A stretch of 64,000 bases of DNA, taken from positions 1 to 64,000 of the IMG/VR virus record IMGVR_UViG_3300035142_000030. One strand, 5' to 3'. Below, piece by piece: positions 21,193 through 63,932 of this stretch; the first letter of the stretch is position 1, and the number at the start of each line of letters is the position of its first letter. Source of the stretch: a virus. The translations under genes were made by a program, and so were the position numbers. The notes under the pieces were generated by a model. It did no database searches, was not told the DNA's origin, and saw nothing but the letters and a program-made list of their open reading frames with translations.

Positions 21193-24100
21193 ATGTCTAC
21201 ACAAAAGCCAATATTACCAGGATTAGAAGGAAGCAATGTTTCTAACAAACCAATATTGCCAGGCCTAGATGTAAAAAAAAAAGAATTTACAGAGGAGCAA
21301 TTAAAAGAAGCAGAAACTTCTTTAAAGGGATATTCAGTAGTGTCTCAAGAATTAAAATCAGAAGTCCCTTCTATTACTAAAGAATCCACAGAATTAGACA
21401 TTGTTCAAGAACAAATAAAAAACATAACTGATTTACGTGATAAAGCACAAGCAGAAAGAATGTCATATGCTCAGCGTAAGATATCTTTAGAAAGAGAAAA
21501 GAAACAACTAGAGAGACAACTTTCTTCATTGCGTGGATCATTAAGTTCCCCTACAGGAAGAACATCTGTTAAGATAGATAAGTCAAAACAGCAAATACAG
21601 GAGAGATTAAAAGAGATTAATGATGAATTTAAGGTATCAGACCAAGATTTACAAACAACTATAGATAAAGAAAGAGATTTAGAGCAAGCACATGACTTCC
21701 TTAAAAAGTCAGAAACACTACTAGAGCAACCTAATGACAATAGTCTAAAAACATTTAAAGAAGGGTTATTCTCTCCATTAGCTAAAGATTTTTTCACTTT
21801 AGGCGTATCGCAGATGGCTAGTCAATATAATATTATGGATATTGCTAACAAGTACAGAGAAGAGGGAGAAGAGGCTTTATCTAAAGAAGAAAGAGCCACT
21901 CTTGGTGCTTATGGTATGTTTTTATTAGCCAATCAACAGCCGCAGTCGGTTACATTTAATGTTGGTAAAGCAATCGCAGAAATGATCCCTTATATGGCTC
22001 AATTTGCGTTAACAGGTGGAGTAGGAGATTTAGCTAAAGGAGCAACCCAAACGTTACTTAAGGCTGGAACAAAAAAAGGAATACAAAAAGCACTATCTCA
22101 AGGTACTGCATTTGCAGCTGGGGCTCTAGCACGTACGCCATTAATGACAATGACGCAAGAAGGCTATGCTCGACGCAGAACGGGTTTAGTTGAACCTAAA
22201 TTAACAAATGAGGGTATTGAGGGGGAAGTGAAAGCAGGAACGGAAGATAGTGTGGGAGAAGCCGCATATAAGGCATTTGCAACTACATTTGCAGAAGTGT
22301 TTACGGAAGAATTAGGAGGAATTGTTACTAAACCATTAGGTAAATTAGCTAATAGAATAGGTATTAATAGTCTCACTAAGAATATTGATAACGCAATAAT
22401 CTCAAGAATAAAAGATGTTGCTAAATTTAATGGTGTTGTAGGAGAATATTCTGAAGAGCTTATAAATAGTTATTTACAAGCAAGTCTTACTAGAGATCAA
22501 CCTTTATCTGAGGTTTGGAATGGCAAACAGCAATTAGAAACATTATTAACTGTTGGTACTATGGGGTCTTTATTTATGGTAGCGAACGTAACACTTCCTA
22601 AATCAAAAAAGAATAAATCTAAATTATCTGATGAAAGAACAAAGTCATTTGATAAAATTAACGATCAGTATAAAGAAGAAGTTCAAAAGATTTCAGATAT
22701 AGAGGATGTTACCGAGAAGGCTACTGTTATGGAACAATACCTCTATGAAAAGAATATAGAAAGCGATCAACTAAAAAATATAGTAGAATACTTAACTTAT
22801 GATAATACGATTAAATCTATAGATGTAGTAGAGGATGAAATACGCCCAGAAACTAAAATAAAAGCCGACACAGGCACTCAAATAGTTTCCGAAGAAGAAA
22901 CTACCACAGAACAAAAAGAAGCCGTTAAGCAGGCTAAAATTAAAAAAACGGAGGTAAAAGATGTACAAGAGCAAGAAAAAATGCAAGAAGAAGCCTTACA
23001 AAAAGAGCAAGAAATACAAGCGCAAGTAGAGGTTTTAGAGAAAGAGAAAGATAGCTTACAAAAAACTTTAGAAAGAGTTCCTGAAGATCAAAAACCAAAG
23101 ATTGAACGGGAGATAAGTGATGTAAATCAACAAATTGAAACACTTAAAGAAGATGCCGAAAAAATTACACAGGTGCGTCAAGAAGTTACAGAGGAAGTGG
23201 TACAGCGAGAAGAGCAGTTGGGCGATATGCAAAAGCAGCCAAAAGAAGAAGCACAAAAAAAAGTAGAACCTTACAAAACGAAAGAAGAATTTAAAAAAGA
23301 TTTCTTATCAAATGAGGTTATTGGAGAAACAGGCAAGACTATTGCAGAGATTAACTTACAAGATACTAATGTTCCAGGTTTAAAAACTTCAGAAAAGATT
23401 TCTGCTGCTAAGAACTTGCGAGAGGGTAAGATGACTAAGCAAGCAGAGATATTGAAAGACTATCTCAATAAAGCTTTTGAATCTGGCACATTAGAAATAA
23501 TTCCTATAAAAGCAGGAGGCAAATCTGTTAAAACAAATATGCCTATTACTGAAATTGCAAGACCGCAGCAAGTGATTGAAGAAACTCCTTTAACCAACAA
23601 AAGAGCTATGGGGCAAAAAGCTTTAGATTCTAAAGTATTAAATTCAGAAGTTAAAGCTAAAATAAAACAACATGGTATTGATTATTTTGTAAGAGGAGAT
23701 CAAGTAGTAACCGAAGAAGCTAATGAGATAGCAAGAATATATCAGGTTACAGGTAATAGAGATGGATTAAAATCACTTATACTAGATACTACTAATAACA
23801 TAAAAGGCGATACTCGTACAGAATTAGCTGTTGCTTACGCAGAAGAAACTCAAAAATTAGTAGATACAGCTAAGACGGTAGAAGAAAGAAAAGTTTATGA
23901 ACAAGATATAGCTGATGTTTATATAGCAGAGATGGAAGGAGCTACGGAGACAGCAAGAGATTTAAGATCAAAAGTAAGATGGCAGCGTGTTTTACAGAAC
24001 AATCCAGATGTAGTTGTTGAGTACAAAAAGCGTCAAGTTAACAAAGAAAACCAAGAGTTTTTAGAAAAAAACAAAGACGACATAAAAACAGCTAAACAAG

Positions 24101-26958
24101 TTATTGATGAGTATTTAGAGAGTGATGACTTTAAAAAGAAAGTTAGAGAAGCTGTTAAGTTAGAAAAAGGAGAATCTATAACTAAACGTCGAGAAAGAGG
24201 ACAACAAAAAATATCTAGTGCTTTAGATAAATTAGCAAATCTTTCAGGGGCTAAAAAGAATTTTGTAGCAGATAATGATGTAAATACTAATAAGGCAGAT
24301 ATTATTGAAGCTGTTACAGAACTTGCTAGTGGGATATTAGACTTAGGAGTTGCCAATATAGAAGATTTAATTCATAAAATAAAAGTTCAAACGAGAGAAT
24401 ATCTTTCTCCAACAGTTATAGATGATATTAAGGATAAGGTAATAAAAGCCACTGATGCTGAAAACAATCTGCAAGAGAAGAAGCTAACAGCAAAAGATGT
24501 CTTAGATTCTAAAGATATTAAGAAAGTTGTTGATAAGATATATTCAAAGGCATTAAAAGCAAACAGAGCAGACCTTAAACGAATACTCTTAGAATCTATT
24601 GATGTAATATTAGAAGAAGGGAGTATAGATAGCAATGCTTTTCAAGAACTATATGCTAAAGCAGCAGGCAAACCTTATGTAGATACAGAGCTATCCAATG
24701 AAATAAGACAGTCTCAAGAAACCATAAATGATGCAAGAAAGATACGTAATAATATTGAGTCATTACTAGATGAGGCTATTGCCGAAACCAAGAAAGATAG
24801 TCCAGACACAGAGAGACTAAAAAGATTAGAAGATCAAATTAAAATACAACAAAAAGAGTACAAGAAAGCTTATAGAGAGGCAGAAAAAGCTAATGCCAAC
24901 CTATCGAGGATATTTGCTCCAGAGATGACAGGAGCGCAGAAATTAAGTTCTGGTGTCCAGGCAGGACTTATGACGTTTTCTACATTCCTATTAAACCCAT
25001 TAGCTAATATGGTATCTACTATTCCTAGAACTGTAAAGATGTATATAGAATGGGGACTCGATTATGGAATGTATAGATTAGGAACAATAAAAGAAATATG
25101 GTTAGATAAACTAGACAGAAAAAAATATCCAACACTATATAGAACGATAGCTACATTGCCCGATCCTATAATGACAAGAAATGCACCTGCCTTTAGTAAG
25201 TATTATTTTAAAAACATCCCATCAGCAGTTAAGCAATCATTTCAAGATGTACTTACAGGACAAACCCCAGATGATGCCTACGTAAGAGAAATTGCAAGGG
25301 GGCTACATCCTTTAGATGCAGCTATAAGAGTTTATGAGAGATTAATAGGCAAGCGCAAAAGAGATTTTGGAAAACTATTAGGAGATATGTGGGAGTCTAG
25401 TTTAGGAGCTTATGCAGAAGGAGTATTTAGACTTTTAAACTTAGGAGATAAACCATTTAGGATTCCTGCTATGTTAGCAAGATTAAATGAGATTGCAACC
25501 ATTAAAAAGCTAAAAGGGTTAGAGAGGGAGAAATTCTTAATAAATCCTGATGAAGAATCTTTAAACGATGCTGTGCAAACAGGATTAGAATCAACATTCC
25601 AACAAACAACAAAAGCTTCTAAGATGATTATACAAATGAAGAATTGGGGGAATGATTTACCTTCAGACAATCCATTATCTAAAGTAGCTAAAGGGTTTGC
25701 AACATTATTTACTACAACACAAATACCTTTTGTTAAGACATTAGTAAATATAGCCAATGAAGGCGCTAAATACACATTTCCTTGGTATTCTGGAGTATTA
25801 GGGACAAGAGATGTGTTGCGAGGGAATAGACGGGGAGCATTGGATAACTATTCAAAAGCTATTGTAGCAAACATTATAGGAATGGGTATTGCAGAGCTAA
25901 TGGCTACAGGTCTGATGACATTAGGACGAGGAGGAAGAGAAGAAGATGATGATAAGTATAACAGAAGAAAAGTAGAAAAAGCTGAATATGTTGGTGATTA
26001 TGGTGCAAACAGATTAAATATAACAGGTACATTAAGATATTTAGCAGGAGGCAACCCAGAGTGGAGAGATGATGATGTGACGATTAATTATCAAGGATTA
26101 GGAATTATGGGAGTTGCAGCATCAGCTAAAGCAGAAGCATATAGAGGATTATCGCCAGAGGAAATACAAGAACAAGCATGGTTTGATTATACATTAGGAA
26201 TGGCGTGGGGTACGTTGCAGGGGGTGACAGAACAACCATTTTTTACAGGGCCAGCTACATTCTTGAGAGCATTTACAGAAGGAGGATACGCATTAGATAA
26301 TTGGATTCAAAATACATTAAGTGCGTTAAAAGTAGCAGCAATACCAAATACATATGTAGCAATTAATAAATATAGAGATAATAGGATTAGAGAGGTAAGA
26401 GAAAAATATTTAGAACAAACTAAGAGCAAAGGATGGAAGGAAGTTAAGAATAGATTAATATCAGAACTAAAACCAAATTCAGACTTACCAGTTAAGGTAT
26501 CTATTTATGGAGAAGATGTAGAGAGATATAAAGATAAGCAGTGGTGGAATTTGATTGATCCGTTAAAAATTAAAAGACATGAGTCAGACTTTGCTTTTAA
26601 GGTATTTGATTTATACAATAGGACTAAAGATGAATCTGTATTCCCATCATATCCTAAAGCATCTATAAAAGATAAGGACATTAGTAATGAATATGTAAAA
26701 TTAGATGCTAATCTGTATAACAAATACGCAAAAACATTGTTGTCATTTAAAGCTACAATTCTGAAAGCAGTAGTTAATTCTGCTGACTGGGAGCAAATGT
26801 CAGATAATGATAGAGTTGCTGTTTTAAGAAAAATACATGATATGTATATGCGAGAAGGAGAAGCTGGTTACATAATGAAAAAGGTTTTTATCGCACAAAA
26901 TTATGAAGAGCTAAAATTATTAGCAGAAAAACAAAAGAAAGAAAAAGAAGATAATTAA
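21193..26958 (+). CDS. Very large internal virion (cargo/ejection) protein
   Basis: 1921 aa, coiled coils plus hydrophobic A/G-rich segments; last gene of the ejection cluster; no RNAP DxDxD motif recognised. Confidence 0.6.
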   Translation: MSTQKPILPGLEGSNVSNKPILPGLDVKKKEFTEEQLKEAETSLKGYSVVSQELKSEVPSITKESTELDIVQEQIKNITDLRDKAQAERMSYAQRKISLEREKKQLERQLSSLRGSLSSPTGRTSVKIDKSKQQIQERLKEINDEFKVSDQDLQTTIDKERDLEQAHDFLKKSETLLEQPNDNSLKTFKEGLFSPLAKDFFTLGVSQMASQYNIMDIANKYREEGEEALSKEERATLGAYGMFLLANQQPQSVTFNVGKAIAEMIPYMAQFALTGGVGDLAKGATQTLLKAGTKKGIQKALSQGTAFAAGALARTPLMTMTQEGYARRRTGLVEPKLTNEGIEGEVKAGTEDSVGEAAYKAFATTFAEVFTEELGGIVTKPLGKLANRIGINSLTKNIDNAIISRIKDVAKFNGVVGEYSEELINSYLQASLTRDQPLSEVWNGKQQLETLLTVGTMGSLFMVANVTLPKSKKNKSKLSDERTKSFDKINDQYKEEVQKISDIEDVTEKATVMEQYLYEKNIESDQLKNIVEYLTYDNTIKSIDVVEDEIRPETKIKADTGTQIVSEEETTTEQKEAVKQAKIKKTEVKDVQEQEKMQEEALQKEQEIQAQVEVLEKEKDSLQKTLERVPEDQKPKIEREISDVNQQIETLKEDAEKITQVRQEVTEEVVQREEQLGDMQKQPKEEAQKKVEPYKTKEEFKKDFLSNEVIGETGKTIAEINLQDTNVPGLKTSEKISAAKNLREGKMTKQAEILKDYLNKAFESGTLEIIPIKAGGKSVKTNMPITEIARPQQVIEETPLTNKRAMGQKALDSKVLNSEVKAKIKQHGIDYFVRGDQVVTEEANEIARIYQVTGNRDGLKSLILDTTNNIKGDTRTELAVAYAEETQKLVDTAKTVEERKVYEQDIADVYIAEMEGATETARDLRSKVRWQRVLQNNPDVVVEYKKRQVNKENQEFLEKNKDDIKTAKQVIDEYLESDDFKKKVREAVKLEKGESITKRRERGQQKISSALDKLANLSGAKKNFVADNDVNTNKADIIEAVTELASGILDLGVANIEDLIHKIKVQTREYLSPTVIDDIKDKVIKATDAENNLQEKKLTAKDVLDSKDIKKVVDKIYSKALKANRADLKRILLESIDVILEEGSIDSNAFQELYAKAAGKPYVDTELSNEIRQSQETINDARKIRNNIESLLDEAIAETKKDSPDTERLKRLEDQIKIQQKEYKKAYREAEKANANLSRIFAPEMTGAQKLSSGVQAGLMTFSTFLLNPLANMVSTIPRTVKMYIEWGLDYGMYRLGTIKEIWLDKLDRKKYPTLYRTIATLPDPIMTRNAPAFSKYYFKNIPSAVKQSFQDVLTGQTPDDAYVREIARGLHPLDAAIRVYERLIGKRKRDFGKLLGDMWESSLGAYAEGVFRLLNLGDKPFRIPAMLARLNEIATIKKLKGLEREKFLINPDEESLNDAVQTGLESTFQQTTKASKMIIQMKNWGNDLPSDNPLSKVAKGFATLFTTTQIPFVKTLVNIANEGAKYTFPWYSGVLGTRDVLRGNRRGALDNYSKAIVANIIGMGIAELMATGLMTLGRGGREEDDDKYNRRKVEKAEYVGDYGANRLNITGTLRYLAGGNPEWRDDDVTINYQGLGIMGVAASAKAEAYRGLSPEEIQEQAWFDYTLGMAWGTLQGVTEQPFFTGPATFLRAFTEGGYALDNWIQNTLSALKVAAIPNTYVAINKYRDNRIREVREKYLEQTKSKGWKEVKNRLISELKPNSDLPVKVSIYGEDVERYKDKQWWNLIDPLKIKRHESDFAFKVFDLYNRTKDESVFPSYPKASIKDKDISNEYVKLDANLYNKYAKTLLSFKATILKAVVNSADWEQMSDNDRVAVLRKIHDMYMREGEAGYIMKKVFIAQNYEELKLLAEKQKKEKEDN

Positions 26959-31026: not shown

Positions 31027-31155
31027 ATACAACGTTAAGCTTATGATACGTTGCGTTTAATAACATAACTTTTTGATAAAAATAAAAATTATATAAAATG
31101 AATATACTTAACAAATTAGCAAAATGTAAGCAATGGATTATACGCATTGTTAGCA
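31027..31155. repeat. attC-like site; its loop contains the start of the 31098 gene
   Basis: ATACAAC...TATGATACGTTGC / GCAATGGATTATA...GTTAGCA; homologous to the site at 51269-51398. Confidence 0.7.
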
Positions 31156-31478
31156 GTAGTTTATCTGGGAGGGTTTTTTATGATAATGGTAAAAAATATA
31201 TTATTCCTAAACACGTTTGGTTTAGCACAACTTTTAAAAAATATGGGAATGTACATAAAGCAAAGTTTGTTATCAACAAATACTCAAAGTCAGAACCAAA
31301 ACGAAGAATATGTAAATACATAGATGTTACAACTGGAACATATTTTTGTTTTGTAACCGCAAAAAGCAAAATAGAAGCACAAAAATTATTTTATAAGCAA
31401 TTGTGCGAATCAGGTGTTATTTTAAATGAAGAAGAAGAATGGAATCAATTTTTTTTCGGGCATGAACAAAGCGAATAA
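31098..31478 (+). CDS. Hypothetical cassette-type protein
   Basis: N-terminus KQWIIRIVSSS is encoded by the attC arm. Confidence 0.6.
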   Translation: MNILNKLAKCKQWIIRIVSSSLSGRVFYDNGKKYIIPKHVWFSTTFKKYGNVHKAKFVINKYSKSEPKRRICKYIDVTTGTYFCFVTAKSKIEAQKLFYKQLCESGVILNEEEEWNQFFFGHEQSE

Positions 31479-31774: not shown

Positions 31775-31984
31775 ATGAGACAAGAAGTAAAATTTAGAGC
31801 ACCAATTAAAGTAATTGAAAGCGACAACTATTATTTGGTAATAGAGGATGCCGTTGGAGTTACGCATTATTTTCACAAAGAACATGATAATAAGTATGGA
31901 AAATTTAAACAAGGCGAATATGATGGATGGAGTAAACAAATTCGTAGTTTAAATGATAATACGAAAAAATGTTGTGGATTTTAA
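31775..31984 (+). CDS. Hypothetical protein
   Basis: 69 aa, AAATTATG start. Confidence 0.55.
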   Translation: MRQEVKFRAPIKVIESDNYYLVIEDAVGVTHYFHKEHDNKYGKFKQGEYDGWSKQIRSLNDNTKKCCGF

Positions 31985-32078
31985 TGTCCCGTTTAGAGGT
32001 ATATCCCGAAATAAAAAAAAAACTCGTAGAGTTTTGGGGGTACGGGATGGGTTGTGGGAATACCGAGCAAGCAATGGT

Positions 32079-32151
32079 TTATAACACAGCGGGATTTATG
32101 GGACGGTTTGGGGCTTTTGCCCCAAAATGGACTATGAAATCACAGTTAGGC
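32079..32151. repeat. attC-like site B
   Basis: TTATAAC...GATTTATGG / CTATGAAATC (extrahelical G)...GTTAGGC with an internal TTTGGGGC-TTTT-GCCCCAAA hairpin. Confidence 0.75.
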
Positions 32152-32166
32152 ATAAAATTTTTTGAT

Positions 32167-32367
32167 ATGGAATTTATAGTAGAATTAGAAGAAGGTGTTT
32201 ATTTGGCTACTTGGTCTGGCGACCCTGGGCGAACACTAAAGATTGAAAACGCACAAGTATTTGTCCGCGATAAAGATGCTGATAATGCTCTTGTTAGAGC
32301 CAGATATTATAGACCATTTAAGTATGCCAAAGTGCGAAGGCAAAAGGAAGGGTTGCGAAGCAGCTAA
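32167..32367 (+). CDS. Cassette gene, hypothetical (MEFIVELEEGVYLATWSGDPG...)
   Basis: Start re-called downstream of site B; lies in a body with 13-bp complementary ends. Confidence 0.65.
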   Translation: MEFIVELEEGVYLATWSGDPGRTLKIENAQVFVRDKDADNALVRARYYRPFKYAKVRRQKEGLRSS

Positions 32368-32386
32368 GGATGGGGGGGATTTTTAT

Positions 32387-32479
32387 GCCTAACGGTTTGG
32401 CTATGTTTAGTAGCCTAACCACTAACTTTGAAATATTTACTAAATTTGCATAGGCTATTAAATATAGCTTTTGTTATAA
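32387..32479. repeat. attC-like site C
   Basis: GCCTAAC...GCTATGTTTAGTAGCCTA / TAGGCTATTAAATATAGC...GTTATAA; 18-bp stem with two G-T pairs on the + strand. Confidence 0.8.
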
Positions 32480-32483
32480 ACTT

Positions 32484-45702: not shown

Positions 45703-46010
45703 TCAATCGCTTGCACTCCTTCCCTCATTTAAAATTGTATCAATTTGTTATTTTAAATGCTAAAATATCAACAGTTAATCGGATTTAATACGGTTAATTG
45801 CTTATATTTAAACAATTTTAAATTCCATCCTTACAACCCTCAAAATGCCAAATATTATTTTGCCTAACAATTTGGAAAATAAGCCTTCACACAAGTCCTT
45901 TAACGTCTCTTCTATCTGTTGCATTTTACCTAATATTACAATGCCTAACTAGTAAATAAAGTCCATAAAAATCAAAACTCTGTGTTTATAAAAAATAAAA
46001 CCACCGCACA

Positions 46011-48118: not shown

Positions 48119-48218
48119 CGCTAACAAGCGGTCATAGTTAATAAAGCCAATTAAGTTTAGTTCGTTGTAGGTTGCGGTAGTGGGTGGCTTTACTAACCAT
48201 ACCGCATCTACGTTACAG
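48119..48218. repeat. attC-like site F
   Basis: CGCTAAC-AA-GCGGTCATAGTTAATAAAGCCA / TGGCTTTACTAACCATACCGC-ATCTAC-GTTACAG, with an extra C in the left arm. Confidence 0.82.
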
Positions 48219-48266
48219 ACAATTGCCCGCACGGCATTCCGCACGGGCTATCGCTCACAACCCACT

Positions 48267-48623
48267 CTAAATTTTGTTTAGAATTTGTTCCAACGCCCAA
48301 TACTCTGGATTTGCAAGAGCAGTAACTACATTATTAATATCACAAATACTAATAATCAGCCAAATACATAAAATGATTGCAAGTATAACAATTGCAATCC
48401 AATGTCCAACTTCAGTATCATTATCATAGCATTTTTGATAATTTTTAGCAAACCATTTTATGTATCGCACATATGGTATAATTAAGAGAAAAGAAATAAT
48501 GATTAAGGTAATTCCCACAAATGCATCAATAGGTGCTTGCTTAATCATAACTCCCCACAAGTATTCGGTCGTTGTACCAAGCTTACTTGCTAAGCTTTCT
48601 AATAATGTTGTTAATTCATTCAT
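48267..48623 (-). CDS. Two-TM cassette protein
   Basis: LASKLGTTTEYLW...NPEYWAL; body ends GTTACAGACAATTG / CAATTGTCTGTAAC. Confidence 0.7.
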   Translation of the reverse strand: MNELTTLLESLASKLGTTTEYLWGVMIKQAPIDAFVGITLIIISFLLIIPYVRYIKWFAKNYQKCYDNDTEVGHWIAIVILAIILCIWLIISICDINNVVTALANPEYWALEQILNKI

Positions 48624-48666
48624 TTTAATATAATTTAGTTAAACAAAATTTTCTAATGTCAATTGT

Positions 48667-48814
48667 CTGTAACAGTCGCCTAAATACAGCATTCGTCGCA
48701 GCTTCGTATCAAATTGGTTCATATCGTATTGAAACCCTAAGGCAACTATCTGTAACTACTAAATACAAGCCAGCGAGACAAGCTCGCCATCGTGTATTTA
48801 GGCGACTGTTAGAT
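48667..48814. repeat. attC-like site G with perfect 19-bp arms
   Basis: TAACAGTCGCCTAAATACA / TGTATTTAGGCGACTGTTA. Confidence 0.8.
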
Positions 48815-49001
48815 TCCATACTCCCACGGCATTCCCACAAACCCCGCTACGCCCCACCGCACAAAAACCATCGTATGAAATCTAATGGTACGGCAAGTAG
48901 TACCACTCGCTCAATACCATTTACGTATCTGAATCTTATTACTTCCTCCAACGTACAGAATCTAACTGTCAAGTCAGAGGAAAGTAATTTTAGAACTCAT
49001 T

Positions 49002-49226
49002 CTAAACAATACGTTTACAGCTTAATTCCCAATGTACTTGTTCGGCAACTTTTAATCTACGAACTGAACTTTTTCCAGTTTCAGGTAATTTGCCTTCATT
49101 TAACCATAATAATATCATTTGTATAAAGTTGCCTGCTGGCAATTCTACTTTTTGACCTTTACCATCTATATAATAAACTGTATCAGTCAATTCGCTGTAA
49201 ACTAATTCTTTTTTTTGCTCAATCAT
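49002..49226 (-). CDS. Hypothetical protein enclosed by an 18-bp inverted repeat
   Basis: 74 aa; arms at 48884-48901 and 49276-49293. Confidence 0.6.
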   Translation of the reverse strand: MIEQKKELVYSELTDTVYYIDGKGQKVELPAGNFIQMILLWLNEGKLPETGKSSVRRLKVAEQVHWELSCKRIV

Positions 49227-49396
49227 TTCTATATAATTTTATCTGTTAATAAACAATGTTCTAAAATTCCCATCCACTACTTGCCGTACCATTGTAACTC
49301 AATTGACAGCTCTCCATCCGCACAAGGCTTCCCATCCGCCCCGCAAAATACCAAAGCAATTGAGTTACAACGCTCGGAGTTCATTCGATGTAAAAA

Positions 49397-49651
49397 TTAT
49401 GAAACACCGAGTTTATGAGCTTCTTCATCAAATGCAATTTTTATATTTGTAATTTCAGTTTGAATTTCTAATAAAAGTTCATGAAATTCTTGTTGCTTAT
49501 CTTCAATTTGTTTGTCAGCAAATTGCATTTTTGAAATTATGTTCTCCTTATAAGCATAAGCAGAGTTCAAATCATTTTTTAATTTTGTGTGCTTAGCTTT
49601 AAGAACATCAAGTCTATTTAAGTAATTACCATACTGTTCTTGAAAATTCAT
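49397..49651 (-). CDS. Coiled-coil cassette protein
   Basis: 84 aa. Confidence 0.6.
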   Translation of the reverse strand: MNFQEQYGNYLNRLDVLKAKHTKLKNDLNSAYAYKENIISKMQFADKQIEDKQQEFHELLLEIQTEITNIKIAFDEEAHKLGVS

Positions 49652-49700
49652 AATTTTTACCTTTCTATATTTAAGTTTATAATGTTCGATACGTCACAGC

Positions 49701-49810
49701 GTACAACTACGTGTAATGCAGAATTGCTACAATCGAATGATGCCGATTTACGGCTTTACTTTGCCTTGCGGCAAATCGCCGCAACTCAGCATACACTCCG
49801 AGCGTTATGC
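49701..49810. repeat. attC-like site
   Basis: GTACAAC-TAC-GTGTAATGCAGAATTGC / GCAACTCAGCATACAC-TCCGAGC-GTTATGC. Confidence 0.75.
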
Positions 49811-49842
49811 GTAAAAATACCCGCATCCTAGTTCGCTAACGC

Positions 49843-49938
49843 TCACCCATCCGCATCCTCCCACTTATCAATATACAATTTTAGCTTATAAATAAGTATT
49901 CCTATTACAATTCCGATTCCTATTAATATTAAATTCAT
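49843..49938 (-). CDS. 31-aa single-TM micropeptide cassette gene
   Basis: MNLILIGIGIVIGILIYKLKLYIDKWEDADG; fills a body with 16-bp complementary ends. Confidence 0.55.
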   Translation of the reverse strand: MNLILIGIGIVIGILIYKLKLYIDKWEDADG

Positions 49939-50095
49939 ATCCAAATATTTTTACGCATAACACCAGAGAAAATATACCGTCCCGCAGGAGACGTTCTCCA
50001 GTATCTGCAAGTTTATATTCCTAATATTTCTACTCATAACTAAAAAATCATAGCACATTAAAATCAAAACTCTGTGTTTAATAAAATAAAGCCAA

Positions 50096-50446
50096 TTAAT
50101 ATATATTCTTTCTACCCCTGTCAGCGTGCAATGGTACTAAATGATCACACGAACCGCAAAAATGTTTAGCTTTAGTCTCCCAGTAAATTCCTTCAGAATG
50201 TGTATCAAAAAGCGAATTACAATTGCTACACATCTCAATATGGTCTGGTAGTAAAGGAAAATGTTCTTGTAAATAATAAATTATTGCAAACGCTTTTTTA
50301 GCTGTCATCTTTGGCTGATGCCCACGCTTAAAAGAAAGTTGTTCAGGTAATTCACCTTGTAAAAAATTGTAAAATTCTTCTATCCATTCAAGGTCTGTAT
50401 CAATCCTCTGATCATTATTTTTAAGCAATTTTATTTCATTGTACAT
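50096..50446 (-). CDS. Zn-binding hypothetical protein
   Basis: CSNC...CGSC; enclosed by an 18-bp inverted repeat. Confidence 0.6.
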   Translation of the reverse strand: MYNEIKLLKNNDQRIDTDLEWIEEFYNFLQGELPEQLSFKRGHQPKMTAKKAFAIIYYLQEHFPLLPDHIEMCSNCNSLFDTHSEGIYWETKAKHFCGSCDHLVPLHADRGRKNIY

Positions 50447-50586
50447 AAGGCTTTATTTTTAATTAGTACTAAATTTATAATCATATTTTACCTGTAATTT
50501 CATCAAGTTTCAATCAATGTTTTAATTTTACCGTCCCATATTTTCTCTGGTGTTAGAAAACATGCCGTTTCGAACGGACGCAAAAA

Positions 50587-50868
50587 TCATTTTGCTTTCT
50601 TATATTTAGAGCCTTTACTATTACAAAAATCACATATTGCATTGTTAGGTTTGTTAGATATACATGAACTGCAAAATTTCCATTTTTGCTCATGTTTTCT
50701 AACGGTTTCACGTTCGTTTGATATTAAAATTTGATTGATAAAGTCATTCAATTGGACTATAGCGTATTCAACAGACAACATATCTAATGTGTCTTCATCT
50801 CCAATTGTATCAAGTCTATCCATTAATATCTTACGTATTCCATCAGTATAATCTTTTTTATGTTTCAT
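50587..50868 (-). CDS. Cassette protein with Cys-rich C-terminus
   Basis: CSSC...CDFC. Confidence 0.6.
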   Translation of the reverse strand: MKHKKDYTDGIRKILMDRLDTIGDEDTLDMLSVEYAIVQLNDFINQILISNERETVRKHEQKWKFCSSCISNKPNNAICDFCNSKGSKYKKAK

Positions 50869-50926
50869 AATATCAAATTTTAATTATTAATACTAATTTA
50901 GTTTATCAATTCTCAACGTCACGATT

Positions 50927-51036
50927 TTCTAACCAACGTTTATGCTTAATTAAAGCTATCAAACGATGCTCCGTTAAAGCTTTTCTTGCGTTTCACGCAA
51001 CCGCTTTAACAAAGCATACACGTGAAACCGTTAGAG
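50927..51036. repeat. attC-like site
   Basis: TTCTAAC-CA-ACGTTTATGCTTAATTAAAGC / GCTTTAACAAAGCATACACGT-GAAACC-GTTAGAG. Confidence 0.8.
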
Positions 51037-51041
51037 TGCAT

Positions 51042-51329
51042 TTAATCCAAGTGAATAAGCATTTCTCCCCACGCACTTCTACCTTTCACTTTCGGTAGTG
51101 ATGTGTAGTGTAGTGTCATTCCTGTAAATTCACACTCTTTGTTATTTAAACTTTTTTTAACCATCCAGTCTTTTGCTTCTTTCCTTATAATATCATCTTC
51201 ATTGTTTCGATGCCAGCCCACGCTAATTATCAAATTACCAATTCTAATTTTACTAAGTGAAAAACGCACTCTAACAATAGATAAAATCCATTGCTTAAAA
51301 TGTGCTAATTCGTTACGTAAGTATTTCAT
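51042..51329 (-). CDS. Cassette protein starting inside an attC loop (MKYLRNELAHFKQWILSIVRVR)
   Basis: N-terminus homologous to that of the 31098 protein. Confidence 0.6.
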   Translation of the reverse strand: MKYLRNELAHFKQWILSIVRVRFSLSKIRIGNLIISVGWHRNNEDDIIRKEAKDWMVKKSLNNKECEFTGMTLHYTSLPKVKGRSAWGEMLIHLD

Positions 51330-51398
51330 ATCAATGTTTTTATAAGTTTGAAAATTCAGTTCATTAAATCGCAACGTATCTTATCAGAGCCGTTGCAC
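51269..51398. repeat. attC-like site homologous to 31027-31155
   Basis: CTCTAAC-AATA-GATAAAATCCATTGC / GCAACGTATCTTATC-AGAGCC-GTTGCAC. Confidence 0.8.
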
Positions 51399-51485
51399 AC
51401 AATGCCCCATCTAGGGGACGTGCGACTCGCTATCGCTCCTGTCGCACTCATTGTGTGCAACAGTTTGGCGTTAGCTTGTAAATAA

Positions 51486-51662
51486 TTATTCGCTCAGTAC
51501 TTCTAAACTATAAGATGATACATAATCAATCTTTTTACCAACTATTACAACTGCATACGGTATATCATCAGCTCCCCGCACGTATCCATCAATGTATCCA
51601 ACATCTCCAACCTTAAACATCATATGTTGGTATTCTTTAATAATTTTAACTTTTGTCTTCAT
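51486..51662 (-). CDS. 58-aa hypothetical cassette protein (MKTKVKIIKEY...)
   Basis: Translated by hand; below the track cutoff. Confidence 0.6.
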   Translation of the reverse strand: MKTKVKIIKEYQHMMFKVGDVGYIDGYVRGADDIPYAVVIVGKKIDYVSSYSLEVLSE

Positions 51663-51697
51663 AATTATTTATTTAGTTATTTGTTAATTTCTGCTTA

Positions 51698-51868
51698 CTA
51701 GATGGTGCACAATGTGCAACTAGCGTTTATGCGTAATTGTAATAGGCAATTTCCAATCTCCCAGTAACTTGCGCCTAAACGTTCCAATATCATTTCAGCT
51801 TTCTCAAAGCTCCAACTTTTATAACATTGATAAAAGTTCCCTTTATAGGTATACATTATATGAATCAT
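51698..51868 (-). CDS. Hypothetical protein (start MIHIMYTYKG)
   Basis: AAATTATG context; C-terminus reads through an attC-like arm. Confidence 0.45.
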   Translation of the reverse strand: MIHIMYTYKGNFYQCYKSWSFEKAEMILERLGASYWEIGNCLLQLRINASCTLCTI

Positions 51869-51985
51869 AATTTTATATTTAAAGTTTGTACTAAATTTTA
51901 ACAATACCCTAAAAATCCTTCCCATATCTTTCGGAGTGTTATGGCTCAATTTCGCTACGCTCTACGATGACTTCATTTAATTGAG

Positions 51986-52171
51986 CCATAACGAGACAAC
52001 GTATGAAGTACAGGCTCAGTGTACTATATTAATTCTATTTTAATTTATCCGCTCAACTAGAGCATAACTACATATAAGCGTAATACTATGAGCCTTACTT
52101 CAAAGCTCTCAGAATATTTCACCGATAAAAATCGGCTCATATTCCTACGCTTATACGTTGTCTCGTTAGTA
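51986..52171. repeat. attC-like site with perfect 16-bp outer arms (right edge of array 2)
   Basis: TAACGAGACAACGTAT / ATACGTTGTCTCGTTA, plus inner TGAAGTA..AGGCTCA / TGAGCCTTACTTCA pairing. Confidence 0.75.
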
Positions 52172-53295: not shown

Positions 53296-53553
53296 TCATA
53301 AATTTCGTTGTTTCTGAATGTTAATGTCAGATTTACGCTGTGTTCTGTACTCTCCATCTATTTCAAATATTTCTAGATTATTATATATTTTATGTTTAGG
53401 CTTAATCCCATCACGTACTCTAAACCATCCCATAATAGTATCACGAGGTATATTTAATAAATCCCTTAAAACACCTTTATTTTTACATAGATATTGTTCT
53501 CCTGTACTACGGTCTCTTACAAATACTTTAGTAGTTCTTCTAAATATTATCAT
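53296..53553 (-). CDS. Hypothetical HTH-like protein
   Basis: 85 aa, LRDLLNIPRDTIMGWF. Confidence 0.45.
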   Translation of the reverse strand: MIIFRRTTKVFVRDRSTGEQYLCKNKGVLRDLLNIPRDTIMGWFRVRDGIKPKHKIYNNLEIFEIDGEYRTQRKSDINIQKQRNL

Positions 53554-54080
53554 TTTCTTATTTGTGTAAGTGGATTAATATACTTTAGTCCCTCTTTCAT
53601 CCTATCGTGGAATTGCCTATTAAGGTATGATTGCCTGGGGTTGTTCCCAAATTTAGCAATTATCATTGCCCTCACTGCTTCTTTTGATATGCCAAGCTCT
53701 TTACCTATTTTAGTATACCACCAACGCTTATTGGTAAATAGATGATATGCCTTCTCTTTAATATCGTTGGGTATCTCTTTACCTTCAATGTTAAGTGTTA
53801 GATTCTCTTTATCGTTGTTTTGGATATCTCCGTCTTTATGTATCACTTTAGCGTGAGGGTTGAATATTCCATAAAACATCAAATATTTGAACTCATCTAC
53901 CGACACATCCACACGAAGCGAATAACCGAGCATTAATCGGTAGATGTATTTCTTATTTATAAACATCACTTTTACGGGTCTTTTCTGCTTTGTATTTAAT
54001 AGCTCTTCTTTTTTAGTGTCAAAGGTATACTTACCGATAGAAAGTGCCCCTAAACAAACGTACTGAGTTTTTAAATCCAT
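53550..54080 (-). CDS. Degenerate HNH plus HTH protein
   Basis: VIHKDGDIQNNDKENL; IGKELGISKEAVR. Confidence 0.6.
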   Translation of the reverse strand: MDLKTQYVCLGALSIGKYTFDTKKEELLNTKQKRPVKVMFINKKYIYRLMLGYSLRVDVSVDEFKYLMFYGIFNPHAKVIHKDGDIQNNDKENLTLNIEGKEIPNDIKEKAYHLFTNKRWWYTKIGKELGISKEAVRAMIIAKFGNNPRQSYLNRQFHDRMKEGLKYINPLTQIRK

Positions 54081-59771: not shown

Positions 59772-60368
59772 TTATAGCACATCAGGCTTGAACTCAAAGA
59801 TATATGCTTTATGCCTAGTTTCATCTTTTAAATATCGATTAATTGTTTTGCGATCTACACCGAAATGTTTAGCCGCATCGACAACAGAATCAAACTGTAA
59901 TTGTTCCCTGGTTTGTATGTGTGTGGTTAATATAGGTTTTTTCTTTGCATTTGACATTTTTATGCGTGTTTCAAGGTTGTGCGGAGGTTTTATTTTGCCT
60001 TTCCAATAACTATTCCTTTGTCCTGTCTGAAAGGATTTTAATATGTTTTCGCTATGAGTTACCCACTCTAAGTTAGATATATGATTATTTAACTTATCGT
60101 GGTCAATATGGTTAACCTCTTTCTTATATTTATTGTCGCTATATCCCTTGAAAGTGATTAATACGAGCCTATGAGCGAAGAATATCTTTGTGCGTGGTTT
60201 ATCTCTGTTCTCTTCTGTCTTCTCTTGCGTAAGATGGTATAATATATAGCCACAACTATTTAGTTGAGGTTTTAAGAATCTTTGCTTTCTGATAGAATAC
60301 ACATCACCGTTTTCATATATATAATATAAGTTTTCAAATCCTGGTAACATTATTGTTTTTCTTTTCAT
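59772..60368 (-). CDS. Free-standing HNH homing endonuclease (NUMOD4-HNH-NUMOD3/NUMOD1 type)
   Basis: PGFENLYYI.ENG, AHRLV, EVNHIDHDKLNNHISNLEWVTHSEN, ETRIKMS, FDSVVDAAKHFG. Confidence 0.88.
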   Translation of the reverse strand: MKRKTIMLPGFENLYYIYENGDVYSIRKQRFLKPQLNSCGYILYHLTQEKTEENRDKPRTKIFFAHRLVLITFKGYSDNKYKKEVNHIDHDKLNNHISNLEWVTHSENILKSFQTGQRNSYWKGKIKPPHNLETRIKMSNAKKKPILTTHIQTREQLQFDSVVDAAKHFGVDRKTINRYLKDETRHKAYIFEFKPDVL

Positions 60369-60752: not shown

Positions 60753-60929
60753 TATAAAATAAAATATAATATGTGAATGTACTAAGTTTATTTGATGAGA
60801 TATCATCAAAGCTACTTCATCTTAATGGAGTCTAATGGTTGAGTATATGAGTAGTGTCCCAAACGTACAGTGGGACGCACATAAATTTTAAAAAATGTAC
60901 AAACGAGAATATAAACTATAAAAACACGA

Positions 60930-61346
60930 GTGATGAAAAATTTAAAACAGGCATTAATTGAAAATATCGCTGACATTTTAGATAGTGAAGATGTACGGTG
61001 TGAAGAGGTGTTAAACGGAATTTCCGACCCGATAAAAAGAGAAAAAAGCGAGTTGCATATAAGGATGGCAGAAGCTGCACTTGCTGAATACAAAAGAACG
61101 TGCGAGGACAGGGCAATGGAATTAGATATTGAAATATTTGACAAAAACAGAAAGGTATTACATATAGGTAGTATTATAAGCCGTTATTTATTTAAACTTG
61201 CAGAAAAGCACGATAAAGATGTTGAAGATTTACTACTAGGTATAGAACTAAGCCAACCAATTAGAGATGATGGAAAGAACATCATAGAATTAGTGGACTT
61301 AGACCTTAATAGAATTGACAAGGTTTTATGTTCTAATGGCTTATAA
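60930..61346 (+). CDS. Cassette-type protein spanning an attC-like arm (KVLHIGSIISRY)
   Basis: Stop TAA lies inside the TTATAAC core of the next site. Confidence 0.55.
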   Translation: MMKNLKQALIENIADILDSEDVRCEEVLNGISDPIKREKSELHIRMAEAALAEYKRTCEDRAMELDIEIFDKNRKVLHIGSIISRYLFKLAEKHDKDVEDLLLGIELSQPIRDDGKNIIELVDLDLNRIDKVLCSNGL

Positions 61347-61623
61347 CGTTGAATGTATGGGTAGGGCGTGAAATACCTGCAGCCCTACACGCGATAGATA
61401 AACATTAAATAACATAAATAGCGAACGATTATGAAACACGTAATAGAATTACTTACAGAACAATTAGAATTGATTAGTGACGAAATAAGATATGCAGAAG
61501 GTGAAGAACTGAAACAGTTAGACTGCAGAAACACAGAAATAGGGACTGCTCTTAAAATACTGCAGTTAGTGAGCGGTGTAAATACGGAGAACGAACAAGC
61601 CTTACCTATACATATTGTTAGGG
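61341..61623. repeat. Large attC-like site whose loop holds the start and about 55 codons of the 61431 gene
   Basis: TTATAAC-GTTGA-ATGTATGGGTAGGGCGTG / CAAGCCTTACCTATACAT-ATT-GTTAGGG (17 of 18 paired, two G-T on +). Confidence 0.8.
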
Positions 61624-61826
61624 TTTGTGCTTGGGAGGATGCTGCAGACGAGGATAAAGTACCATTTTTAGAAAAAGCTGCAGAACTTGCAGGTGATTCA
61701 ATGTTTTGTACGCGCGTTTGGAGTGCGTGGGGAGTTGGAACTATGAGCGAGAACGACTTTGTTGATGCTGCAGATGATGATGATTACGTATACGAAATAG
61801 CAAAAGCGATTTGGGAGGGGTATTAA
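61431..61826 (+). CDS. Two-part cassette protein (junction ALPIHIVRVC)
   Basis: 131 aa; C-terminal half lies in the body GTTAGGGTT...AACCCTAAC. Confidence 0.65.
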   Translation: MKHVIELLTEQLELISDEIRYAEGEELKQLDCRNTEIGTALKILQLVSGVNTENEQALPIHIVRVCAWEDAADEDKVPFLEKAAELAGDSMFCTRVWSAWGVGTMSENDFVDAADDDDYVYEIAKAIWEGY

Positions 61827-61924
61827 CCCTAACGCCTTAAAGCGTAAACTCCGTTACATGGAGAACGTAGTTCGGGAATGTAACGAGTTTAAAATGCTGT
61901 AATGGAGTTTACGCATAGTTACAA
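61827..61924. repeat. attC-like site
   Basis: CCCTAAC-GCCTTAAA-GCGTAAACTCCGTTACA / TGTAATGGAGTTTACGC-ATA-GTTACAA. Confidence 0.82.
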
Positions 61925-61976
61925 ACCGTGCCAATGGCACAAAGATTATTAGAATGTTGAACTTAAAATAAATTTT

Positions 61977-62126
61977 ATGAAACGTTTATGTAAAATGAAA
62001 CCATATTATGTAATACCAAGAGTATTTTATATATATGCTGGCTATACTGGATTAGATAATGGATTAGCAATAGGTTGGCTTGGCAGAATGTTTATTATAA
62101 TTATTCCTGTTAATGAAAGGGAATAA
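61977..62126 (+). CDS. 49-aa hydrophobic cassette protein
   Basis: Translated by hand (MKRLCKMKPYYVIPRVFYIY...). Confidence 0.45.
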   Translation: MKRLCKMKPYYVIPRVFYIYAGYTGLDNGLAIGWLGRMFIIIIPVNERE

Positions 62127-62465
62127 AATTTATGCATTTTAGCTTTAAGGCGTTACAAAACCATAGGCAAACAGTGGAAACGGTGAGCGAAGCGAATAAG
62201 TTTCGTTTGCCGTGCCTCGATGGCATGGTTTTGTAACGTACGTGTATACGCCTGTTGGTATGATTATTAATAGTATAAACTTAAATTAATAAATAATAAA
62301 ATTACGTAAATTCGCAAAAATAATAAAGACAACGAAAACAGATTTGCAGAAATGATAATACCCAGAAAAGATATTGATATAATAATTAAGAGACAAAGAT
62401 CAATATTATAACAAAGTGTTAATCAAAAATTGAATGAATAATAAACGTATTAAATATATAATATT

Positions 62466-62856: not shown

Positions 62857-62920
62857 CGGTAACGGTGGCAATAAGATTAAGCGTAGCGACCCGTAGGGTT
62901 AATTTTATTGCGTGTTATAC
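62857..62920. repeat. attC-like site upstream of the methyltransferase
   Basis: CGGTAAC-GGTG-GCAATAAGATTAA / TTAATTTTATTGC-GT-GTTATAC. Confidence 0.8.
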
Positions 62921-62951
62921 ACTAGCACGAATTATTACTAAAGATGATTAA

Positions 62952-63932
62952 ATGAACGAAAGTAGCAATAACAGTTTTTTGAGCGTTGGTGGAAAAGCCG
63001 AAGGGATAAATGTAGTAAGTATGTTTGATGGTGCAAGCTGTGGACAAATAGCTTTAGAAAAAGCAAAAGTAATGGTAAAAAATTATGTTGCTTCTGAAAT
63101 AAAGCCACATGCTATAGTAACATCTAAATTACATTACCCAAACACTATACATGTTGGAGATGTTAGATACTTGCATGTAGTAAATACGGGTGTTGAAGTT
63201 AATATTAATAGAGCACAATATAGAACAATAGGAATTGGATTAATTGATTTAATAATCGGTGGTAGCCCCTGCAAAGGGATAAGCAGATTAAACAAAAATC
63301 AAGAAGGGTTAAAGCACAAGGAAAGTATTTTATTTTGGGAGTTTGTGAGGGTTTTAGAACAAGCTAAACTGTGTAACCCAGATGTATATTTTTTACTTGA
63401 AAATACGCACGGAAATAAAGAAGCAACTCAAATAATAACTGAGACATTAGGCGTTAAACCTATTAGCATTAACAGTAAACTTGTTACAGCACAAAATAGA
63501 CCTAGATACTATTGGACAAATATACCAGGCATTGAGCAACCAAAAGACAAAGGAATAACGACCAACGATGTTTTTAAATACAACGGGGACATAGTAGATG
63601 ATTGTAGGGTAAAATGGCTTAATAACGATAGTGGTAAAAACTCTGTAAAAAAAGGATACACAAGAATAAACCCTTACCCTAAAAGTGGTTGCTTAACTGC
63701 CAATGGACATAAAAAATGGAACGAGAATTATTTGTATAAAGATGGTGTGTACAGATATTTATCTAAAGAAGAGCTAGAGGTATTGCAAACATTTCCAATT
63801 GGATATACAAAACATTTAAGTTATGATGATGCTTATGATTTAATTGGCGAGGCTTGGACGATTGATATTATAGCACATATATTTTCTTATTTGCCGATAG
63901 GCAAAAGAGGGGGAGAAAAAGATGTATGTTAA
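62952..63932 (+). CDS. C5-cytosine DNA methyltransferase
   Basis: SMFDG (motif I), GGSPC (IV), FLLENT (VI), QNRPRYYW (VIII), LQTFP and IGEAWT (IX/X). Confidence 0.9.
   Translation: MNESSNNSFLSVGGKAEGINVVSMFDGASCGQIALEKAKVMVKNYVASEIKPHAIVTSKLHYPNTIHVGDVRYLHVVNTGVEVNINRAQYRTIGIGLIDLIIGGSPCKGISRLNKNQEGLKHKESILFWEFVRVLEQAKLCNPDVYFLLENTHGNKEATQIITETLGVKPISINSKLVTAQNRPRYYWTNIPGIEQPKDKGITTNDVFKYNGDIVDDCRVKWLNNDSGKNSVKKGYTRINPYPKSGCLTANGHKKWNENYLYKDGVYRYLSKEELEVLQTFPIGYTKHLSYDDAYDLIGEAWTIDIIAHIFSYLPIGKRGGEKDVC

Follow-up and report, generated by a model that had tools for sequence, protein, structure and literature searches.

AttC-like sites with predicted translation starts in a phage genome: a possible variant of the gene cassette

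The IMG/VR record IMGVR_UViG_3300035142_000030 is a complete viral genome of 76,721 bp, and the DNA that we analyzed is its first 64 kb (the window). The genome has a direct terminal repeat of 127 bp (1-127 and 76595-76721, 100% identical) and a GC content of about 31%. Small accessory genes, on both strands, come after a 27-kb block with large virion genes. DNA matches are few and are to phages of marine Flavobacteriia (Cellulophaga and Winogradskyella). Our subject is a set of hairpin sites among the accessory genes, each opening with the 4-nt core TAAC and closing with GTTA. An earlier note, made from the sequence alone, proposed that four open reading frames (ORFs) start in the loops of such sites and run through the 3' arm and the core in a fixed frame, and that exchange at this core would create chimeric proteins. 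These ORFs (61431, 60930, 31098, and 51329 on the minus strand) match no family in Pfam or PHROGs. We lean towards the view that the sites and genes are gene cassettes of the integron type in a phage that lacks an integrase, in an array like a cluster of attC sites without an integrase (CALIN), and that the sites may carry the translation starts of their genes.

ORF 61431 lies between two TAAC cores (Table 1). Its start codon is 87 nt past the left core, its stop codon is TAA 61824-61826, and a second in-frame TAA falls within the right core. The GTT of the internal core (61617-61619) is codon 63 of the ORF (Val63), in frame 0. The part of the gene beyond this core is a body with complementary ends of its own (GTTAGGGTT and AACCCTAAC), as the earlier note had seen. 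The 5' arm is homologous to the 5' arm of a widespread family of sites of about 124 nt, described below. The predicted fold has bulges on the 3' arm, and the z-score of the region is weak overall, as expected from a loop of 240 nt.

Table 1. Cores, arms, ORFs, and modules in the window
Feature	Position	Strand	Description
ORF, 126 aa (31098)	31098-31478	+	18-codon leader (..KQWIIRIV) up to GTT 31149-31151, frame 0
Interlocking inverted-repeat chain	48212-52168		AAC/GTT cores shared by left and right repeats, continuous
ORF, 93 aa (50587)	50587-50868	-	55 codons before core 50700-50703 ('ETV', frame 0)
ORF, 95 aa (51329)	51042-51329	-	Homologous leader (..KQWILSIV) across core 51272-51275, GTT in frame 0
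Degenerate 5' core TAAT, followed by 5' arm	60833-60836	+	Precedes ORF 60930; counterpart in contig L157 is canonical TAAC
ORF, 137 aa (60930)	60933-61346	+	In-frame fusion of N-terminal module (~60 aa) and 76-aa 'MELDIEIFDK' protein
Degenerate internal core ATTA	61173-61176	+	Ile in frame 0 (ATT 61173-61175), after translated arm 'LHIGS'
TAAC core	61344-61347	+	Contains stop codon of ORF 60930; left border of 61431 module
5' arm of hairpin	61353-61367	+	Pairs with 61596-61613 in minimum-energy fold
ORF, 131 aa (61431)	61431-61826	+	Start and 62 codons within loop and arm
3' arm, translated as (A)LPIH	61596-61613	+	~97% identical to locus L072
Internal GTTA core and arm, GTTAGGGTT	61617-61625	+	Complementary to 61825-61833; same sequence in L072
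Closing arm and TAAC core (61830-61833), AACCCTAAC	61825-61833	+	Right module border
Site TAAC...GTTA, 326 nt	61830-62155	+	Perfect 10-bp arms; 49-aa ORF within loop
Geneless GTTA...TAAC module, 86 nt	62152-62238	+	Also in four other metagenomes

Twelve relatives of ORF 61431 are alike from about '(A)LPIHIVRV' to the C-terminus, with conservation starting at residue ~57 in 11 homologues, and among the homologues the N-terminal 45-55 residues are mutually unrelated. The C-terminal part contains a CxRVWSAWGxGTM domain that is widespread in phages (at least 70 viral loci). A scan of genome contigs with the C-terminal domain found distant proteobacterial homologues only. Every homologue has both the arm and the body. 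In ORF 61431, the stretch from the core to the conserved region lacks an in-frame start codon, so the start must be in the loop; the conservation excludes a start downstream of the GTT core.

We read one close relative, L072, at the DNA level. Homology spans AAC 61345-61347 to the downstream TAAC core and is lost directly outside both cores; the left core of L072 is CAAC. Identity is about 90% in the 5' untranslated region (UTR), about 97% in the arm plus core, and 75-80% in the C-terminal coding DNA. The only part of the unit that has been replaced is about 135 nt of N-terminal coding DNA in the middle of the loop. In an attC-like site, the counterpart of this variable N-terminal part is the variable loop. 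The 61431 site is a member of the ~124-nt family with an expanded loop.

Within IMG/VR, one and the same site of this family is found at 18 distinct loci. The order of its parts is TAAC, 5' arm, inner hairpin, conserved 5' UTR, ATG, 14 codons, and GTTA, for a length in the main family of about 120-125 nt. The last codons of the leader ('M.E.Q.PTLPIHGV') double as the 3' arm. The edges of the site are sharp: mean pairwise identity is 0.27 before TAAC and 0.87-1.0 inward of it, and on the right it drops from 1.0, which holds to the end of GTTA, to 0.37 one base later. At least nine unrelated families of bodies have this leader joined to them in frame: C5-methyltransferases of two kinds, an N6/N4-methyltransferase, one more protein that resembles methyltransferases, and five unknown families. 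Among the 18 copies of the 14-codon leader there are zero stop codons and zero frameshifts, and 10 of 17 leader-body ORFs end with TAA followed by C. These loci come from a search of IMG/VR with the arm-plus-core pattern TTACCTATACANNNNGTTA. The pattern matched about as often as chance predicts, and many matches were conserved proteins outside the system (for instance 'LPIHWVTPVGFP'), so from this search we used only the subset with a full site.

The converse is seen with the N6-methyltransferase body. We collected 80 viral loci with relatives of this body, picked without reference to the site. The body lies behind at least five different site families. Its first 230 nt are 77-94% identical across these groups, whereas the sites have a background identity of 55-70% between groups; the break is at GTTA. 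Every site family has its own arms, and the 5' and 3' arms change together. Outside of cassettes, relatives start with an ATG of their own that precedes the DNLELM motif by about five codons; the cassette forms have no ATG at that place. A start in the loop would thus be necessary for these bodies as well as for ORF 61431, going by the conserved coding regions, and the proposal of the earlier note that sites supply translation starts appears well supported by these two cases.

The frame across the core is not fixed. In two site families, the reading of the body nucleotides GTTACCAGCAGTG... is shifted by one base ('..ECYQQCF..' versus '..VTSSVF..'), and a T-run that is one base shorter restores the frame; the same body is thus entered in frame 0 or in frame 1. 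This implies that junctions at GTTA were made regardless of frame and repaired later. Across all loci, a structure-based scan, which is noisy and includes some spurious ORFs, gave clusters of loop-started ORFs that read through the core, of which 34 are in frame 0, 15 use frame 2, and 3 use frame 1. The earlier note was right that the core GTT is in frame 0 in ORFs 61431, 31098, and 51329(-), and the same holds for a further ORF, 50587-50868(-). But all three frames occur in other viral loci, and the "fixed frame" of four window genes is a sample effect. The core reads GTTAG in all four window cases, and its TAG blocks frame 1, which explains part of the phasing; the earlier note had itself warned of such stop-codon avoidance.

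We aligned 20 viral sites from several families in one register (alignment A8) and scored a model of 24 pairs (5 core pairs and 19 stem pairs). RNAalifold on a MAFFT alignment gave only 7 pairs, so the full stem was supplied by hand. With this model, 84.5% of the pairing cells can pair, as compared to 65% in column shuffles and 35-47% in slid controls. Compensatory double changes are present in 16 of the 19 stem pairs, and the covariation score was unmatched in 500 shuffles (0/500). TAAC (once CAAC) and GTTA are at the ends of all 20 sites, and an asymmetric internal loop adjoins the core. At two positions, a G.T pair is kept in each of the 20 sites (A8 columns 5/128 and 24/114), within a stem that otherwise covaries freely; these pairs may mark the strand or serve for recognition by a protein. 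One adjoins the core (TAAC-G opposite T-GTTA) and the other is in the middle of the stem; in both, the 5' arm of the coding strand invariably carries the G, so the coding strand folds better than its complement. The substitution pattern indicates that the stem structure is under selection.

ORF 60930 has another history. The earlier note took it to be similar to ORF 61431, with its halves joined at 'HIGSII'. Nine of its homologues are stand-alone proteins of 76 aa that begin at 'MELDIEIFDK'. Three others keep the N-terminal ~58 residues of ORF 60930 and then continue with '..LPIQ.V' or 'LLPHV' and three different C-termini. On L157, an unrelated 21-kb viral contig, DNA homology begins 2 nt before the ATG of 'MELD' and ends at the TAAC core. 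Because the homology starts at this ATG, the junction is not at 'HIGSII', which is about 18 codons downstream. We dropped that fusion point in favor of the internal ATG of 'MELD', at residue ~62. In the MELD family, arm and body always co-occur. Most homologues have Val at the core position of ORF 60930, and the stop codon TAA of the ORF falls inside the TAAC core at 61344. A 35-nt block of arm plus core (61151-61185) recurs in another metagenome with different flanks. On L157, the MELD gene and the next-but-one gene have the same layout as in the window: TAAC after the upstream stop codon, ATG in the loop, GTT or ATT in frame, and TAA in the next TAAC. For the second of the two sites, folding predicts a stem that takes in the cores (z -2.5).

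ORFs 31098 and 51329(-) share a leader. Their 5' UTRs and 18-codon leaders are 74.6% identical over 130 nt (E 2e-12), the homology ends exactly at GTTAG, and the C-terminal parts are without any similarity. The protein P0029 is the body of ORF 31098 alone, with its own start about ten residues past the core position. In ORF 51329(-), a GTG lies two codons past the core and could be an alternative start. At both sites, the AAC core is predicted to sit in a small local hairpin. ORF 50587-50868(-), which was absent from the list in the earlier note, has a body of 38 aa past the core with two pairs of cysteines (CxxC).

The cores also organize longer stretches of the phage. Genome-wide, 15 pairs of inverted repeats abut TAAC on one side and GTTA on the other. 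The expected number of such core-joined pairs is 1.1 (from first-order Markov shuffles), and eleven control 4-mer cores gave 0-5. In the chain at 48212-52168, there is about one ORF on the minus strand per TAAC-to-TAAC unit. A second, shorter chain runs from 61830 to 62238. By structure, the arrays at 31 kb, 45.6-52.2 kb, and 60.8-62.9 kb resemble CALINs, with two or more attC-like sites close together.

Where does the mosaic break? The commonest border is the TAAC core after a stop codon. Such borders are seen between the window and L072 (at both ends), between the window and L157, and at N6-methyltransferase bodies. After the terminal TAAC of these bodies, the sequence is different at each locus, even within one site family. 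Also, within a site family, the site and its downstream body recur together in differing upstream and downstream contexts. Contigs from four other metagenomes contain 62119/62153-62237 at 99-100% identity and diverge, each differently, right after TAAC 62235-62238. In the contig from run X4, homology starts at TAAC 61830 and, past 62240, enters the module of 48884-49293. Given the TAAC borders and the joint recurrence, the recent mobile unit looks like a site with its downstream body. That nine bodies have one and the same site, and that one body has five, implies that GTTA is a junction as well, at least over longer times.

We propose that, on the coding strand, the elements are ordered as stop codon TAA|C, 5' arm, loop, 3' arm, GTTA, gene body, and TAA|C. 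The loop would have taken over the translation initiation region, with an ATG and 14-62 codons, so that the body needs no start of its own, and the 3' arm and the GTT would be translated as part of the ORF. The mobile unit would usually be the site plus the downstream body, swapped at AA|C of TAAC on the folded coding strand. Such an exchange would resemble recombination at integron attC sites, with the gene inverted relative to a classical cassette. A cassette would begin with the C that follows one stop codon and end with the TAA that stops its own gene, its ORF would begin in its own site, and the GTTA within the ORF would be the R'' box that does not cross over. Sites might be swapped onto bodies at GTTA only occasionally and in any frame, with selection or small indels mending the frame. 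The recombinase would act in trans, from the host or another source. The layout, the covarying arms, the need for a loop start in ORF 61431 and in the N6-methyltransferase bodies, and the sharp borders at both cores are shown by the comparisons. The GTT within the ORF is probably not the main crossover point, and most exchanges probably make no chimeras. GTT junctions do occur and create new fusions of leaders and bodies, and they do not preserve phase.

A number of observations weigh against this proposal. In two complete genomes of site-carrying phages, we found no tyrosine, serine, or Y1 recombinase. Translation of all of these ORFs is a prediction from sequence. The 61431 site (277 nt) and several of the others in the window (142-598 nt) greatly exceed the length of canonical attC sites (~57-141 nt), although many sites do fall in that range, such as those of the main family and one of 66 nt in phage Peternella_1. 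No long-range stem that joins AAC to GTT is predicted at 31098 (z -0.01) or 51329 (z -1.2), and a stable one is not predicted for the counterpart of the 60930 site on L157 (z -0.05). So the idea that all four ORFs start in a hairpin loop stands for ORF 61431 and not, as far as these predictions go, for the other three. The invariant G.T pairs would suit an RNA helix equally well. Finally, breakpoints are also found inside loops, and junctions at internal GTTA are frequent, which canonical integron recombination leaves unexplained. A bolder reading is that phage modules are exchanged with no need for an integron integrase: every "site" or "body" would be a hairpin closed by an AAC/GTT pair on the coding strand, and a structure-specific enzyme of the phage or host would cut and rejoin either core. 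We consider this rather unlikely. If it were true, start modules and bodies would be freely recombined, by analogy to exon shuffling, with phase kept by selection.

The shuffling idea of the earlier note places cassettes in the canonical orientation, as a body followed by its own attC, with crossover at G|TT within the ORF, so that each move fuses a leader to a new body. Much of what we found could be read in this way. The order on the coding strand (ORF, ...TAAC, hairpin, GTTA..., next ORF) is that of textbook cassettes; one leader is on at least nine bodies and one body follows at least five leaders, joined exactly at GTTA; the KQWI leader is common to two unrelated C-terminal halves within this genome; and a compensating 1-nt indel just past the core indicates that junctions were made there. 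But co-inheritance of a body with its downstream site was not found, and homology ends at TAAC in at least eight independent comparisons; instead, the site and the downstream body are inherited together. In the 61431 and MELD families, arm and body co-occur constantly. The frames vary, the leaders are short, variable, and not domains, and a tested site from phage P12002L (see below) appears to have its crossover at the TAAC core of the coding strand. We doubt this explanation. Another, for which we see a small chance, is that the hairpins act mainly in RNA, where a stem of ~24 bp around the initiation region would control the processing, stability, or translational coupling of the mRNA, and that modules spread by homologous or illegitimate recombination rather than site-specific recombination. 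This would fit the invariant G.T (G.U) pairs, which are always on the transcribed coding strand, the position of the upstream stop codon at the stem's foot and of the start codon in its loop, the high nucleotide conservation of the 5' UTR, the breakpoints within loops, and the lack of a recombinase in the complete genomes searched; also, attC stems influence translation in integrons (PMC8876359). It leaves unexplained why a 4-nt core is the place of more than 20 independent mosaic borders, why the complementary ends of bodies reach the cores, and why geneless modules such as 62152-62238 are common to several metagenomes, and a related site is a working substrate of IntI1. It is very improbable that we are looking at coincidence or at annotation artefacts, with starts past the core or ORFs that are not genes, and with the in-frame GTT due to chance and stop-codon avoidance. 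GTTAG leaves two frames open, so that four of four in one frame would arise about once in 8-16 by chance, ORF 51329(-) has its GTG just past the core, and many bodies begin with GTT-ATG and so have their own start codon. However, conservation starts at or upstream of the core, with no downstream start, in ORF 61431 and the N6-methyltransferase bodies, the 18 leader copies are intact, and the same layout is present in dozens of independent loci.

Returning to cassettes of the integron type, where does this leave shuffling? The earlier note predicted that one N-terminal half would join different C-terminal halves at an exact residue, and this is what we see for the leader on at least nine bodies and for the leaders of ORFs 31098 and 51329. 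It also held that constant co-occurrence of both halves would speak against the idea, and that is what we see in the 61431 and MELD families. So leader-body junctions at GTTA are real, but recent borders are mostly at TAAC, which makes it doubtful that exchange at this core is a protein-shuffling mechanism. Because the leaders are short and variable and the junctions do not preserve phase, "protein shuffling" overstates the case; "portable start module" fits better.

The start-bearing variant of the site is widespread: it is present in this phage, in the unrelated 21-kb contig, and in dozens of uncultured viral contigs. A gene body, in many cases that of a DNA methyltransferase, can do without its own start codon, and gene callers will give such genes the wrong start or overlook their modularity. 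The anti-restriction genes of these phages appear as compact plug-in units that end exactly at the stop codon. The case of one body with five co-varying sites, joined at the same 4-nt core in differing frames and with an indel that mends the frame, is a useful test of how an attC becomes attached to a gene. And the translated sites are a natural precedent for engineered in-frame attC linkers.

We searched more broadly for enzymes that could move the modules. Tyrosine recombinases (PF00589) had no match in the complete 76.7-kb genome or in 5 further site-carrying records, and 30 larger non-structural ORFs yielded no recombinase with Pfam. PF01797 (Y1) had no match in the 76.7-kb genome, nor in a complete carrier genome of 362 kb. 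An IS200-type Y1 transposase is encoded at L360 673-1104 (record G004; E 8.5e-42), not adjoining the cassette site of that contig. This IS200-like gene is confined to a single carrier record and is absent from the complete carrier genomes, so we dropped the single-strand transposon mechanism of IS200/IS605. We also dropped the analogy to shufflons or to Xer/dif modules because the arms are private to each pair and there is no common binding consensus. Pfam identified two HNH endonucleases, one with NUMOD1/4 domains, and a T5orf172/MUG113 (GIY-YIG-like) protein; the three genes are at 59772-60368(-), 53550-54080(-), and L158 9431-9904. These look like free-standing genes of the homing-endonuclease type near the cassette regions. 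A protein of 1921 aa with an LPD14 "large polyvalent protein" domain is encoded at 21193-26958. Scans of the window with Rfam and for tRNAs were blank. Among the close protein homologues collected for the ORFs, P0026 is encoded on a bacterial contig of 4.08 Mb. Scans of viral contigs with the protein of ORF 61431 or of ORF 31098 singly gave no matches, as did the exact 31-nt pattern of the 5' UTR in viral contigs. Against cultured phages, blastn had no matches for 45.5-52.3 kb or for the ~124-nt site.

Other parts of the window have related structures. The module of 48884-49293 has perfect 18-bp arms and AAT/ATT cores around ORF 49002-49226(-). At 32077-32481, the pair GTTAGGCATAAAA / TTTTATGCCTAAC (32145/32393) is nested within GTTTATAAC / GTTATAAAC. 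In the long ORF 31969-32367, the GTT that it crosses is not in frame 0, which makes a true start within the inner module probable. The C5-methyltransferase gene at 62952-63932 is preceded by TAAC and a 5' arm; its expected GTT core seems degenerate ('INVVS', with GTA GTA). The stretch with this TAAC and 5' arm, within 62860-63010, has 87% identity with a site between genes in Winogradskyella phage Peternella_1. Two non-coding stretches of about 155 nt (45848-46003 and 49941-50094) are 71% identical to each other, lie directly 3' of a minus-strand gene, and contain a TAAC core. They may form a common family of 3' modules.

Several known systems resemble these sites. The regulatory cassettes called promoter-early stem-loops (PeSLs) in T4-type phages have conserved stem-loops that flank small accessory ORFs in plastic parts of the genome, and modules are exchanged at them. 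PeSLs probably recombine through sequence homology. In contrast, here the arms are unique to each pair, only the 4-nt core is in common, and the borders are on that core.

The sites resemble integron attC sites, such as those of the chromosomal integrons of Vibrio, in their conserved AAC/GTT cores, in their co-varying arms, in the presence of one site family on many unrelated genes, and in the stop codon that often lies within the ...TAAC box. Unlike in integrons, there is no intI or attI, and the strand that folds better is the coding strand, so that genes are inverted relative to the usual cassette. Also, the loops are up to 600 nt long and contain whole ORFs or the starts of ORFs, and the strand asymmetry is due to the invariant G.T pairs rather than to demonstrated extrahelical bases.

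The closest relatives are in other phages. Integrase-less clusters of attC sites were reported in virulent phages, including Polaribacter phage P12002L, as plain intergenic hairpins (Qi et al. 2023; PMC9892861). Five of six tested sites recombined with attI1 under IntI1; among the sites of P12002L, attC2 was recombined by IntI1 on the bottom strand only and attC1 was not recombined (PMC9892861). We mapped the primer table onto the genome. P12002L_attC1 is a 50-nt TAAC...GTTA hairpin between two methyltransferase genes, and it is the closest look-alike of the present sites, with the same position, orientation, and style of arms. P12002L_attC2 is directly 3' of the stop codon of gp35, and its "top" strand is antisense to the gene, so the recombining bottom strand is the coding strand. 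The crossover would then be at AA|C of the TAAC that follows the stop codon, as deduced from these positions, and this matches the strand asymmetry and the predominance of TAAC borders that we describe. Both systems have TAAC/GTTA hairpins between small accessory genes, often DNA methyltransferases, and no phage integrase. Winogradskyella phage Peternella_1 is similar, with three consecutive sites between small genes, one of them 66 nt long. In these plain relatives, the hairpin is geneless and 50-125 nt long, and the next gene comes after GTTA (20-40 nt past it in P12002L and ~40-60 nt past it in Peternella_1). Here, the ATG and the leader are in the loop, and the arm and core are translated. 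Also unlike in P12002L, arms of 10-19 bp lie on both sides of the cores, there is an interlocked chain of 4 kb, and borders fall at both cores.

For the translated leader, the precedent is in integrons. In class 1 integrons, ORF-11 of attI1 spans the crossover point and lends translation to cassettes that lack an initiation region, and short ORFs in attC sites are thought to aid downstream translation (PMC8876359). As is the case for ORF-11 and for ORF-18, the leaders that we describe are short ORFs with their own initiation region that lie across a recombination core and would serve the downstream cassette. But these integron ORFs end at the core and are not fused to a cassette protein; ORF-11 is in attI, is normally ended by the TAG of GTTAG (frame 1), and acts by translational coupling. 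The leaders here (an ATG and 14-62 codons) are in an attC-like site, are read through the core, mostly in frame 0, and would become the N-terminus of the protein. Integrase-less clusters of attC sites in phages were already known; what is new is a site that also holds the start codon and an N-terminal leader.

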